This document shows positions 17,668 through 21,302 of a DNA stretch of 64,000 nucleotides, in pieces. The position numbers were made by a program, and so were the translations under genes. The notes under the pieces are model-generated. The model ran no database searches. It saw only the letters and a program-made list of their open reading frames with translations, and had not been told where the DNA came from. Source of the DNA: an uncultured Verrucomicrobiae bacterium (GTDB lineage Bacteria > Verrucomicrobiota > Verrucomicrobiia > Chthoniobacterales > Chthoniobacteraceae); contig CAWIKF010000001.1 of NCBI GenBank assembly GCA_963836755.1, positions 256,001-320,000 on the forward strand. Reading direction: 5' to 3'. Position 1 is the first letter of the stretch. Every line of letters starts with the position of its first letter.

Positions 17668-17962
17668 GATCCGGCACTGAAAACTCGGCGTCCCGGCGTG
17701 AATTCCTCACGTCCCGTCGAGAAAAGTCCACGTCCGATGGAGAAAAGTTGAGGTCCCGAGGAGAATTTCTCACGTCCCGGGGAGAAAACTTCACGTCCCG
17801 CGGAGAATTTCTCACGTCCCGTTGAGAAAACATCACGTCCCGGGGAGAATTTCCCACGTCCGATGCAGAAGTTTTCACATCCCGAGGAGAAGTTCTGACG
17901 TCCGGTGTAGAAGTTTTTTACATCCCGAAGCCATTTCCTCACGTCCCGCCGCCGAAAACGGA
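17668..17962. repeat. Degenerate 21-bp tandem array 1 (about 14 units; consensus CGTCCCGNNGAGAANTTYTCA)
   Basis: Units at 17689, 17710, 17731, 17752, 17773, 17794, 17815, 17836, 17857, 17878, 17899 (22 nt), 17921 and 17942, plus a degenerate unit at 17668. Confidence 0.95.
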
Positions 17963-17991
17963 TAATTTAAGACAAATCTCTCGCAAATGAC

Positions 17992-18097
17992 CGGGAGCGC
18001 ACGCTTCCAGCGTGCAGTCGCCGGCATCCTGCCGGCGACATCCGCGAAGGATTCGGCAAGGATGCCGAACCCGGCACGCTGGAAGCGCGCGCTCCCG
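17992..18097. repeat. REP-like palindromic element with internal hairpins
   Basis: cgggagcgcacgcttccagcgtgc ... gcacgctggaagcgcgcgctcccg form terminal inverted repeats. Internal hairpins are gtcgccggca-tcc-tgccggcgac and ttcggca-agga-tgccgaa. Confidence 0.85.
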
Positions 18098-18130
18098 ATA
18101 AGAGCCGTCCGTCTCATCCCAAAAAACCCC

Positions 18131-18158
18131 GTTTCCCATCCGTGTCCCATCCGTGGCT
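18131..18158. repeat. Inverted copy of the 17582 repeat
   Basis: The reverse complement agccacggatgggacacggatgggaaac closely matches 17582-17606. Confidence 0.75.
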
Positions 18159-18248
18159 GAACCAAATGGAACCCGCATGAATCTCCTTCCCAATGCACCC
18201 AAAAACATCACTCTCCCCAAATGCCTGAAAACACACCCGCCACGTTGA

Positions 18249-18680
18249 CGATCCGCAACGCGCAACATCCTCGAAGCCGCTCTCAACAATGAGGCGACCT
18301 ATGTGGAAGGCCTCGTCGAAGACCTCACCGATGCCGCCGCAGCCGCCATTATCGAGGAAGCGGGCATGTCCGTGGCGGGAGAAGTTCCGCCCATCGGCCC
18401 GATGCCGAAAGTCGATGGCCTTTCCGCCACGCAAGGCGACAGCGAAGGCGAAGTCGATCTCCATTGGAACCCCGTGAAACGCGGCTTGCAAAACTACCTC
18501 ACCGAGGTCACCGACGACCCGACCGGCCAGACCGGCTGGCGCTTTGCCGCCAACAGCCGCAAAAGCAGCGTCGCAGTCACCGGCCTCACGAGTGGGAAAA
18601 GGTATTGGTTCCGCGTCACGGCCGAATGCGCCTCCGGCTCCGGCCCCGCCAGCGAGCCGCAAACCAAAGTCGCGCCGTAA
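18249..18680 (+). pseudogene. Fibronectin type III domain protein, apparently 5'-truncated
   Basis: GEVDLHWNPV...VTGLTSGKRYWFRVTA...SEP is an FN3 signature. The frame extends upstream of GTG 18303 as RNILEAALNNEATYVEG but hits TGA at 18246 with no ATG. Confidence 0.7.
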
Positions 18681-18693
18681 AAACCTCTCCCGG

Positions 18694-18749
18694 ATTAGAC
18701 TCAAACATGCGCATTATATTGCGCATGTTTGAGGTCTAATTCGTTAGGC
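18694..18749 (+). other. Long inverted repeat followed by an integron-type core site GTTAGGC (putative attI-like site)
   Basis: attagactcaaacatgcgca-ttatat-tgcgcatgtttgaggtctaat (20-bp arms, one bulged base), then GTTAGGC (GTTRRRY) at 18743-18749. Confidence 0.6.
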
Positions 18750-18756
18750 GCTCCTG

Positions 18757-19179
18757 ATGCGCTATCTACCCAAAATATTGTTTCTCTATCTGGGCGCAGC
18801 GGTATATGCGTGCGCTAGTGACAGGGTCGATTTCACAGGCACGTGGGATCAGCGGAATGCCAAAGCGATCTCGTTCACGCTGTCATTAAAACAGACTGGT
18901 AATCGACTCGAAGGGTATCATCTCGCCGTGGTGCTATACACTCGCGCTCATCACATCGACGACGGGGGCTCTCCAGAAGACGGCGATCCACCATCAATTA
19001 TAGGTATTGTCAGTGGCCAAGAAGCCAGGGTGCGGTTTGAGAGTGGCCGAGAGGGAGGTGGCGCTGCCTTGATAAGATTTGAAGGCAATCGAATTGAGTG
19101 GAAGACGCTTAGTTCTCGTCCTGGGCACTTTTTCCCTGATCATGCGATTCTCGAAAGAAGAGGCTCTCGAAATCATTAA
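18757..19179 (+). CDS. Hypothetical secreted protein carried as a putative integron gene cassette
   Basis: 140-aa ORF with a signal peptide and visibly more A/T-ending codons than its neighbours. ATG lies 7 nt after GTTAGGC, and GCCTAAC follows the stop. Confidence 0.75.
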   Translation: MRYLPKILFLYLGAAVYACASDRVDFTGTWDQRNAKAISFTLSLKQTGNRLEGYHLAVVLYTRAHHIDDGGSPEDGDPPSIIGIVSGQEARVRFESGREGGGAALIRFEGNRIEWKTLSSRPGHFFPDHAILERRGSRNH

Positions 19180-19217
19180 AGGTTCTCAGTCACCACTCGC
19201 TGTCGCAGGATGAAAAA

Positions 19218-19300
19218 GCCTAACAACGTTGCAGCTAATTGGCTCCGGCCTTCACGCTGGCTGCTGCGCACCCAGCGCCCCATCCTCCGCCATTAGCGGA
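19218..19300 (+). mobile_element. Truncated attC-like site (R'' inverse core GCCTAAC plus left arm)
   Basis: gcctaac-aacgttgcagctaattggctcc... begins with RYYYAAC, the exact reverse complement of the upstream GTTAGGC. No distal GTTRRRY is seen before the converging gene. Confidence 0.6.
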
Positions 19301-20261
19301 AAAGCCGGTGCTCCCGCGTGCCGGTGAGCGCTTTTTGCAGGACGATGAACAGCAGCAGCAGCGCGCCGGTGGCAATTTTCGTCCACCAGGTGTTCAGGTT
19401 CCCCTGAAAAGTAATCAAGGTCTGGATCAGGCCCAGGATCAGCACTCCCATCAGCGTGCCGGGGATGAATCCGACGCCGCCAGTCAGCAGCGTGCCGCCA
19501 ATGACGACCGCTGCGATGGCGTCGAGCTCGAGGCCGACGAATGAGGCCGGGTTGCCCGATTGCATGTAAAAAGTGGAGACGCAGCCCGCGAGGGCGGAGA
19601 AAAAACCGGCGAGCGCGTAGATGCCGATCTTCGTGTTGCCGACCGGCACGCCCATGAGCAGCGCGGAGTTTTCGCTGGAACCGATGGCGTAAACGTTGCG
19701 CCCGAAGCGCGTGTAAACGCAGAGCCACGTGGCCGCGATGACGACCGCGATGAAGCAGAGCGCCGTGAATGGAATGCTGATGCGCGGCGCGAGCGGGATC
19801 GAGAGTTCGCGGATGGTCTGCTGGTAAAAGTGGTCCTTGATCGCGAGCGAATCCTCGCGCACGACGAACGCCATTCCGCGCATGAAAAACATTCCGGCCA
19901 GCGTGACGAGGAACGGCGGCAGATCGAAAAACCGGATGAGGCTTCCCTGCGCCGCGCCGAAGATTGTGCCGACGACGAGGGCGATCGCCATTGCCAAAAG
20001 CGGCGGAGTGCCGTCGGCGATCAACGTGGCGATGAAGATGCCGATGAAGGCGATGACCGCGCCCACGGAGAGGTCGATGCCGCCGGACAAAATCACGAAC
20101 GTCGCGCCGACGGCGGCGATGCCGAGGAAGGCGTTGTCGCCGAATAGATTCACGATCACGCGCGGCGAGCTGAAGTTTGGATACAGCACGCAGCCGAGCG
20201 CGTAGAGGGCGATCATGACGAGCGCGGTCGCGGCGAGCGGGATGTATTTGGGGTTGATCAT
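19293..20261 (-). CDS. yjfF: Sugar ABC transporter permease, YjfF-like (galactofuranose type)
   Basis: DNAFLGIAAVGATFVILSGGIDLSVG and ELDAIAAVVIGGTLLTGG. Confidence 0.85.
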   Translation of the reverse strand: MINPKYIPLAATALVMIALYALGCVLYPNFSSPRVIVNLFGDNAFLGIAAVGATFVILSGGIDLSVGAVIAFIGIFIATLIADGTPPLLAMAIALVVGTIFGAAQGSLIRFFDLPPFLVTLAGMFFMRGMAFVVREDSLAIKDHFYQQTIRELSIPLAPRISIPFTALCFIAVVIAATWLCVYTRFGRNVYAIGSSENSALLMGVPVGNTKIGIYALAGFFSALAGCVSTFYMQSGNPASFVGLELDAIAAVVIGGTLLTGGVGFIPGTLMGVLILGLIQTLITFQGNLNTWWTKIATGALLLLFIVLQKALTGTREHRLFR

Positions 20262-21302
20262 GCCGCGGCTGCCGCCTTTCGCGCGAAGAGCCGCGTGAAG
20301 CAGCGGCGCGCTTTTTCACTTTGCAAAAGACAGACGGCGATGACGACGAGCGCCTTCGGGACCGGCGCGATGTCGGCGCTGACGTTGCGCGCATACATCG
20401 TGGTCGTGAGCGTCTGGATGAGCAGCGCGCCGACGATGGAGCCGAGCAGGTAAAAGCGCCCGCCGGTGAGCGCGGTGCCGCCGATGACGACGGCGAGGAT
20501 CGCATCGAGCTCAAAGTAAAGTCCGGCGTGGTTCGCATCGGCGCTCTTGATGTCGGACGCGACGACGAGGCCGGCGAGCCCGGCGCAAAAACCGGCGAAG
20601 ACGTAGGCGATGAATTTTACCATGCGCGCATTCACGCCGGCGTAGCGGCTGGCGATGTCGTTGTCGCCGACTGATTCGATGAACAAGCCGAGCGCCGTGC
20701 CGCGGGTGAGCGCGTGCGGTGACGCCGAGCAGCACGAGCACGAGAATGCACGGAAACGGCAAGCCGAAGAGGTAGCCGTTCGCGATGTAAACCAGCGCGG
20801 GGTCGGTGAAATTGGTAATTTGTCCACCGGTGATGAGCTGCGCGATTCCGCGGCCGGCGACCATCAAAATCAAAGTTGAAACGATCGGCTGGATGCCGAT
20901 GCCGGCGACGAGGAAACCATTCCACGCGCCGAGCAGGAGCGAGACGAAAAGCGCGAGCGCCATCGCGGCGGCGGGTGAAAATGGATGCGCCACGACCGCC
21001 TGCGCCAGCACCGCGCCAGTCACGGCGACGATCGCGCCGACGGACAAATCGACGCCGCCCGTGGCGATGACGAGCGTCATGCCGAGCGCAACGAGCATCA
21101 CGATGCCGCCGTGTTTTAAAATATCGATCAGCGTCCCGTAGAGATGCCCATCGCGCAGCTCGAGCTTGAAGAAACCGGGCGTCAGCAGCGCGTTAAACAA
21201 AAGTAAAAGTCCCAGCGCGAGCAGCGGAAAAAAGATGCGCTCTTTTCGCGTGAAAAAGAGCAACGCCGCAAACGCTGCCCAAAAAAGAACGAGAAAAATC
21301 AT
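20258..21302 (-). CDS. ytfT: Sugar ABC transporter permease, YtfT-like; +1 frameshift near 20718
   Basis: The N-half (GMTLVIATGGVDLSVG) is in ORF 20511..21302 and the C-half (ELDAILAVVIGGT) in ORF 20258..20827. Removing one base restores LGVTHALTRG. Confidence 0.85.

Follow-up and report, generated by a model that had tools for sequence, protein, structure and literature searches.

The window, a 64,000-nt stretch of contig C1 from the genome of an uncultured Verrucomicrobiae bacterium (G000), harbors a small element between the end of a fibronectin-III-domain ORF and the 3' end of the convergent gene yjfF (Table 1). The element comprises a hairpin followed by GTTAGGC, an ORF, and a broken attC. 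The inverted repeat with 20-bp arms and one bulged base that a first-pass annotation had described in front of GTTAGGC was borne out base for base, and the start of the ORF 7 nt further on was read directly at an ATG. Within the site, an outer inverted pair encloses an inner dyad round an AT-rich centre, followed by a spacer and the R box. The R box is complementary to the GCCTAAC of the window cassette itself, and following established integron biology (PMC9892861), the crossover is predicted to fall between G 18743 and T 18744.

Table 1. Features of the locus (window coordinates unless a contig is named)
Feature	Position	Strand	Basis or remark
Window	G000:C1:256001-320000		G000 is the window's genome
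21-bp tandem repeats of the upstream module	17679..17948	+	
Inverted repeat, presumably REP-like, 39-nt arms	17992..18097	.	several genomic copies
Fibronectin-III-domain ORF, ends 13 nt before the site	18303..18680	+	domain search and paralogous-locus comparison
14-bp flank	18680..18693	+	common to two other site copies in the genome (C2:1277509, C2:1340923)
attI-family site, no adjoining intI	18694..18749	+	read directly; fold; profile match; alignment
Hairpin left arm	18694-18713		20 nt
Hairpin loop	18714-18719		
Hairpin right arm	18720-18740		21 nt, single bulged G
Outer inverted pair of the site	18694-18700 and 18734-18740		ATTAGAC and GTCTAAT
L box-R box spacer	18741..18742	+	alignment
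R box GTTAGGC	18743..18749	+	read directly
Cassette ORF, 140 aa	18757..19179	+	ATG at 18757, 7 nt past the R box
Broken attC	19218..19291	+	R'' GCCTAAC at 19218-19224, L'' and inner arms; without L' and R'
yjfF, galactofuranose ABC transporter permease, convergent neighbor	19293..20261	-	NCBIfam NF008630
Tandem-repeat/fibronectin-III modules	17679-18680; C1:615.8-617.2 kb; C2:763.5-765.0, 1470.2-1471.6, 1698.8-1699.6 kb		

Over 662 nt, the upstream module shares 89% identity with C1:615.8-616.4 kb; there, the gene is followed by a degenerate attI copy of the same type. Since the 5' part of the fibronectin-III ORF in the window is out of frame with the start common to the paralogous locus, this ORF is likely a decayed gene. 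On the other side, the yjfF product scored 402.6 bits against NCBIfam NF008630 (cut-off 363), and its stop codon occupies 19293-19295 on the minus strand. Upstream of yjfF (20258-21302, minus strand), a sugar ABC permease gene is represented by two overlapping ORFs in different frames, which suggests a frameshift or an assembly error.

As proposed at first pass, the cassette ORF looked foreign, with a GC3 of 0.47 versus 0.86 for yjfF. Its description as promoterless was upheld by just two observations, the 7-nt gap and a sigma-70 promoter scan of 18550-19400 in which none was called. The ORF encodes a hydrophobic N terminus and is likely to give rise to an exported small protein. A Pfam scan returned no family and a word-index protein search no homologue, all matches in the ESM Atlas stayed under 0.9, and among 347 loci compared the ORF matched only itself. 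Among 400 other genomes of the class, we found one homologue (G325, 38%, E 1e-16), which is a cassette flanked by intact attC in a six-attC array. The first-pass question whether homologues occur in cassette arrays is thereby answered with one case.

The GCCTAAC at 19218 and the attC-like left arm cut near the convergent 3' end of yjfF were present as previously described. When aligned to intact attC sites of G000 (82% identity over 50 nt at an E of 8.6e-6), this region showed a 2-nt loss in the left spacer, lacked about 35 nt centrally, and had lost the L' and R' boxes; the similarity ended 1-2 nt before the yjfF stop. A home-made covariance model derived from 8 other (sister) attC sites ranked it first in the window (18.4 bits, E 0.028), but the match was weak and level with the REP-like hairpin at 18.3 bits. 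Lack of an attC model match at 19218 had been named at first pass as counter-evidence, and so weak a match goes part of the way towards it. In a genome-wide nhmmer search with a long-attC profile, the window attC was unreported at E <=0.01. By this similarity, 19218-19291 is a remnant of the attC family of G000. Arrays often end in an attC reduced to its left arm at a convergent host gene, as in the window and at four other loci (L047, L051, L099, L108). Cassettes with attC sites and no neighboring integrase are known as CALINs and SALINs (PMC4889954; bioRxiv 10.1101/2022.09.11.507474). A CALIN comprises two or more attC and no intI; the window element has one broken attC and is, by attC count, a broken SALIN.

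We then turned to the hairpin. It folded with z scores of -8.6 (plus strand) and -7.6 (minus strand), and none of 200 shuffles folded equally well. Only 13 perfect hairpins with arms of at least 14 bp exist in the 3.18 Mb, the window hairpin among them. A/T runs of terminator type flank 10 of the 12 others and are absent here; the hairpin has no T tract, and no intrinsic terminator was called at it. The assertion that it is not a normal attC held: the order is reversed with respect to RYYYAAC...GTTRRRY, and an attC model gave 0 matches at 18694-18749. Against a profile of 34 intI-adjacent sites, all from other genomes, the window site aligned weakly but over its full length, at profile positions 4-63 (14.8 bits at an E of 0.064, compared with 12.1 bits for the top control match in the reversed genome). 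It is 85.7% identical over 63 nt to a copy at C2:1340933, which heads an array with six attC profile matches and itself scores 25.9 bits (E 2e-5, match from C2:1340937). Homology to intI-adjacent sites is thus weak for the window site alone and stronger through this copy. We conclude that the hairpin with its GTTAGGC is a lineage-specific, dyad-symmetric attI, neither an attC nor a terminator.

The window site retains its L and R boxes. The spacer between them measures 2 nt versus 4 nt in intact copies of the family, which in turn differ from attI1 of class 1 integrons, whose spacer is 5 nt. Judging from the alignment, the 2-nt loss is likely inactivating. With 2 nt missing from the spacer and its attC broken, the window copy belongs to the family in decayed form and, on its own, is a minor relic. 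The exact window-type variant gave 0 matches in GTDB and in metagenomes. A search of 400 other genomes returned 5 matches in 4 genomes, which we rejected on inspection: none of them leads into an R box in the stretch inspected, one lying at a contig end. At first pass, a hairpin never found beside intI was to count against the reading. This applies to the exact variant, which is known only from G000 and was not seen next to any intI, and not to homologous family sites.

A role for the folded hairpin was considered and is unsupported, since paired changes are lacking in the outer arms (G/C 0, A/C 9, G/T 28, A/T 131); this pattern would suit binding by a protein better than folding of one strand. 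Template switching is a mechanism that can perfect the symmetry of inverted repeats, and the window copy may owe its more perfect symmetry to it. Four DNA sequencing runs yielded short pieces alone, 0 of which bridged the site, so that they do not bear on it.

In line with the first-pass annotation, neither intI nor a remnant of it was found in the window, including upstream of the site. A single integron integrase is encoded in G000, as an open frame on the other contig (C2:765053-766066). It scored 474.8 bits against TIGR02249 (cut-off 265) and has the IntI insertion and the catalytic residues, the latter read by eye. Its attI is of a short form, with an inverted TTAGAC...GTCTAAT pair, 4 nt, and GTTAGGC. 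Motifs of attC occur at many separate loci of the genome, and a stricter profile yielded 39 matches in 15 clusters, with 0 in the reversed genome. The profile of intI-adjacent sites recovered eight sites at E <1, one linked to intI and seven without it. The weakest of the seven (C2:1426371) scored 11.7 bits, below the 12.1-bit control, and therefore rests not on the profile but on its similarity to the region upstream of intI (77.5% over 80 nt); the first attC at this head (C2:1426k) is 98% identical to the first attC of the intI locus. Three further copies were judged by eye to be truncated or degenerate. G000 thus has one intI and six or more intI-less sites of the family, and sister sites head arrays of up to nine attC profile matches. 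Upstream of one site, C2:1340933, a Met-x10-GGK stretch was considered as an intI stump and found no support from the IntI profile.

Several of the G000 copies share 14 to ~260 bp of upstream flank, and several adjoin tandem-repeat-led genes resembling that of the window. Both features suggest, at the level of sequence, that a larger unit was duplicated. Five attI-like sites, the intI locus included, are directly adjoined by modules in which tandem repeats (of 21 or 41 bp) accompany a fibronectin-III or related gene and sometimes a REP-like hairpin; these modules may be the unit that duplicates platforms. Two near-identical intI-less platforms of G000 (C1:703.4 kb and C2:1471.4 kb, 95% over 264 bp) have different first cassettes. 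The same was seen for L070 and L102, 13 kb apart on one contig and 97% identical over 500 bp. In the G000 arrays and in G002:C27, the commonest attC has the same last 12 letters, through the R box, as the attI of the lineage, and attC spacers are 5 and 8 nt.

To follow the family beyond G000, we used two patterns (29-33 letters) derived from the G000 copies. They matched 68 GTDB stretches and at least 121 metagenome stretches (L063 was left out as a duplicate of L062), and the GTDB titles were nearly all Verrucomicrobiota, Chthoniobacterales or Ca. Udaeobacter. This family and the IntI tree also point to Chthoniobacterales as the order of G000. Among the matches listed, 103 sites had at least 1.2 kb upstream. 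No intI ends within 500 bp of 79 of them, a co-oriented intI or intI fragment is present at 22, and at 2 the intI is divergent. A long form with the same central AT-rich dyad as in the window adjoins a same-genus intI (L009). Conservation has a sharp edge at a GTTAGAC-like box, which in 162 of 169 scored sites precedes the R box by 49-50 bp. The first base of this box is often not G (A in 54/169). In a sample of 121 genomes from one family, the site was present in 67 (reversed control, 0), 39 of which have two to six copies by hand count, and intI in 85, mostly as one copy; the site and intI tallies each include one unpublished genome (G177, G269), on which nothing else here depends. Six sites coexist with one intI in G172, and five with one intI in each of G214 and G183.

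The 78 orphan sites scored among the matches listed fall into 34 upstream contexts, including pgeF, M48 peptidase, glnA, pafA, nuoC, rpsD, gpmI, ftsH and surA, names that were assigned from Pfam families. With 50 of 61 candidate ORFs scanned, 19 contexts had a Pfam-named upstream gene, co-oriented in 17. Over the 34 orphan contexts, the part of the site outside the search pattern carried 1.6 bits per position compared to 0.06 in the flank, and identity was 0.89 for orphan sites versus 0.74 for their flanks. Some 55 bp are therefore conserved across these contexts, whereas an attG has GWT only and no extended site. Because the site belongs to a conserved family, the first-pass suggestion of a secondary site, in the sense of a chance target, is unsupported.

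A short form without the inner dyad coexists with the long form in G172, G203, G233, G240 and others, as well as at G000:C2:766101-766138, and resembles the product of deletion between short direct repeats. In a long form (L036:2975-3031), we noticed by eye a weak -35-like hexamer with the AT-rich centre 16-17 nt later, and the two could be a cassette promoter.

How do orphan sites arise? Behind one glycosyltransferase gene, intI was full in 3 cases, partial in 1 and absent in 5, and behind ftsH it was full in one and absent in another. Overall, the 39 intI-linked loci divide into 20 with a full intI, 12 with a fragment only and 7 cut by a contig end; at the second site of G002, intI is internally deleted. 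Full, partial and absent states at one locus show that orphans arise by integrase deletion, a process seen in relatives that we infer for the window. The first-pass proposal of a lineage-specific attI left after integrase loss fits both this stepwise deletion and the intI-linked homologues. Only 3 of 101 orphan flanks hold a remnant of the intI 3' end, which counts against deletion as the sole route.

Of 24 long-flanked intI-linked loci, 22 have their intI directed towards the array. The co-oriented IntIs (11 of the 31 rows of the tree) form one clade (99/100) within divergent IntIs that share the attI family, in a tree rooted at the midpoint only and built with no Treponema sequence. A single inversion of intI, with the attI in front of it kept, would agree with this topology. 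The inverted-integrase arrangement in Chthoniobacterales is displayed by L036 and other co-oriented loci.

We next analyzed the cassettes at orphan sites. The last two letters of the R box match the inverse core of the first attC at 38/43 orphan and 19/22 intI-linked sites (27% by chance). This agreement indicates precise, integrase-type cassette junctions, as expected for insertion. When pairs of sites sharing an intI-less context were compared, 4 of 10 with >=95% flank identity and 89 of 90 with 80-95% had different first cassettes. By class, it differed in 1/7 (>=98%), 3/3 (95-98%), 6/6 (90-95%) and 83/84 (80-90%), counts that come from mutually dependent pairs, few of them near-identical, and from MAG or metagenome contigs that may be chimeric. 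Most of the 6 pairs (of 7) that share the first cassette at >=98% look like one organism sampled twice. L101 and L110 are 99% identical upstream and have identical sites followed by unrelated arrays, with two short shared stretches downstream. A first cassette displaced to second place was not found in any same-context comparison, bar one cross-match in the pgeF group.

The pgeF context comprises 25 loci, 0 with intI, and 17 different first cassettes among the 23 scored. In the 30 genomes matching pgeF best, 2 loci were filled and two more had a short relic by eye; lpxA lay within 1.5 kb in 25, and there was 0 intI within the 0.8-1.5 kb examined. From these comparisons, orphan sites appear to be used, gaining cassettes and not merely donating them. 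At pgeF, the host frame enters the attI: in 22 of the 25 loci (including L047), the stop is the TAG of the upstream box, which adds about six residues. A host stop inside the site would by itself conserve three site bases.

We consider it quite probable, from sequence comparison, that the hairpin is a Chthoniobacterales attI, likely left after intI deletion, that intact copies likely still use a distant integrase, and that the window copy is likely dead. Whole integrons occur in many host contexts, sometimes several per genome. In relatives, intI has been deleted while the ~55-bp attI and the array stayed, and the window would have undergone the same. IntI from the remaining locus would then bind the site as double-stranded DNA through its L and R boxes, presumably assisted by the upstream inverted pair, which would replace the direct repeats of attI1, and would insert attC-bearing cassettes at G|TT. 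With a co-oriented host gene just upstream of the site, the first cassette would be expressed by read-through. The window copy has a spacer short by 2 nt and an attC without its right end, and a single cassette remains.

This scheme draws on the reported ability of IntI to recombine attI, as double-stranded DNA, with the bottom strand of attC, in folded form, at G|TT (PMC8946536) and on laboratory assays in which IntI supplied from another plasmid works (PMC9668308, PMC9892861). Non-cognate attI/IntI pairs are described as generally inefficient (PMC8946536). Together with the short form carried by the G000 intI, this counts against use of the window-type variant. By comparison of sequences, use in trans, as suggested at first pass, is probable for the family sites and doubtful for the decayed window copy, whose inactivity we infer.

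Orphan sites could instead be inert fossils, the cassette differences predating a separate, recent intI loss in each lineage. We consider this unlikely. Pseudogenes of intI are reported to be common (PMC2426708), 12 of our 39 loci are fragment-only, the window copy and three other G000 copies are visibly decayed, and the window-type variant has no known cognate integrase. However, orphan sites are more conserved than their flanks, the pgeF loci combine a uniform lack of intI with many first cassettes, and L101 and L110 share a junction and differ in cargo.

Another explanation is that the attI itself is mobile. IntI would make its cuts in the GTTAGAC-like box upstream and in a downstream attC, and the resulting attI-cassette circle would insert at GWT sites elsewhere and seed platforms on which intI never resided. 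That insertion takes place at GWT sites of genomes is established (bioRxiv 10.1101/2022.09.11.507474), and the conservation edge does coincide with an R-box-like box 49-50 bp before the real R box. The 34 unrelated orphan contexts among the matches listed, the rarity of intI remnants (3/101), and the pgeF locus, filled in 2/30 genomes with lpxA in 25 and no intI in the 0.8-1.5 kb, would also be explained. Nevertheless, we regard this as quite improbable. The deletion series is seen directly, the G000 copies share flank beyond the box, the first base of the box is A rather than G in 54 of 169 sites, the outer arms are free of paired changes, and we found no pair of empty and filled junctions that shows a clean G|TT footprint.

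Finally, it is extremely improbable that the hairpin is a terminator or a repressor operator of the fibronectin-III gene with the cassette at a chance secondary site behind it: its location 13 nt past the stop codon, its stable fold and the reported commonness of single cassettes at secondary sites (SALINs; bioRxiv 10.1101/2022.09.11.507474) would suit this, but there is neither T tract nor terminator call, and homologous sites adjoin intI in G000 and other genomes and head arrays, so that the idea, also raised at first pass as a simple terminator, appears largely refuted by homology.

The family attI can be compared to attI1, which is described as a 65-bp site made of the simple site L/R together with DR1 and DR2, which are direct repeats (PMC3146285, PMC8946536). 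Compared with that description, both have a core L/R simple site ending in GTTRRRY, a G|TT crossover, a similar length and extra upstream sequences resembling integrase boxes. Unlike in attI1, the accessory boxes are not direct repeats but form an inverted pair that encloses an inner dyad, the family has long and short forms, and most copies have no adjoining intI.

For CALINs, both intI loss and use of a distant IntI have been proposed as origins, and an intI pseudogene is reported absent from 95% of them (PMC4889954; bioRxiv 10.1101/2022.09.11.507474). In contrast to CALINs and SALINs as described there, the arrays reported here keep a recognizable, conserved attI and appear to gain cassettes. 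A CALIN with its own attI was already known from one case: in the Shewanella prophage M16-3, one attI heads a complete integron and another an integrase-less array (PMC9892861). That is, as reported, a single prophage without turnover data, whereas here dozens of host-gene contexts in a bacterial order are involved. In Xanthomonas, one intI locus likewise coexists with integrase-less arrays at fixed chromosomal sites (bioRxiv 10.1101/2025.06.18.660453). Unlike for the Chthoniobacterales sites, no attI is described at those CALINs in the passages covered, and some are read as inactive. Integrons with inverted integrases are reported for Treponema and others (PMC4889954), and the orientation of intI towards the array is similar here. 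As far as that description goes, the difference is that our 11 co-oriented IntIs form one clade among divergent IntIs with the same attI, in a tree that leaves out Treponema.

In the literature covered, which included few subscription journals, we found no report of this attI family or of intI-less attI networks in Verrucomicrobiota. The family is apparently undescribed, and an archaeal attI alignment (supplement of PMC9668308) could bear on the novelty of its anatomy. Integrase-less arrays outnumber complete integrons, and how they arise and whether they work are open questions, largely because attI is unrecognizable in most lineages. The family provides a searchable attI for a major soil lineage, in which the same locus shows full, partial and deleted integrase states and in which comparative data indicate that orphan sites probably keep changing cassettes. 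The origin of integrase-less arrays and their activity as entry points thereby become testable. A bolder proposal, to which we give a small chance, is that Chthoniobacterales, including Ca. Udaeobacter, possess a distributed integron in which one integrase serves several chromosomal docking sites behind housekeeping genes, and in which the ~55-bp attI is also excisable at its upstream box, together with its first cassettes, and seeds platforms. If true, this would offer a direct route to the 95% of CALINs without an integrase remnant.

Several integrases can also reside in one genome of this lineage. In G015 (C5:173-221 kb and C7), we found five intI, four of them clustered within 50 kb; every copy has an attI of its own, and their first cassettes differ.
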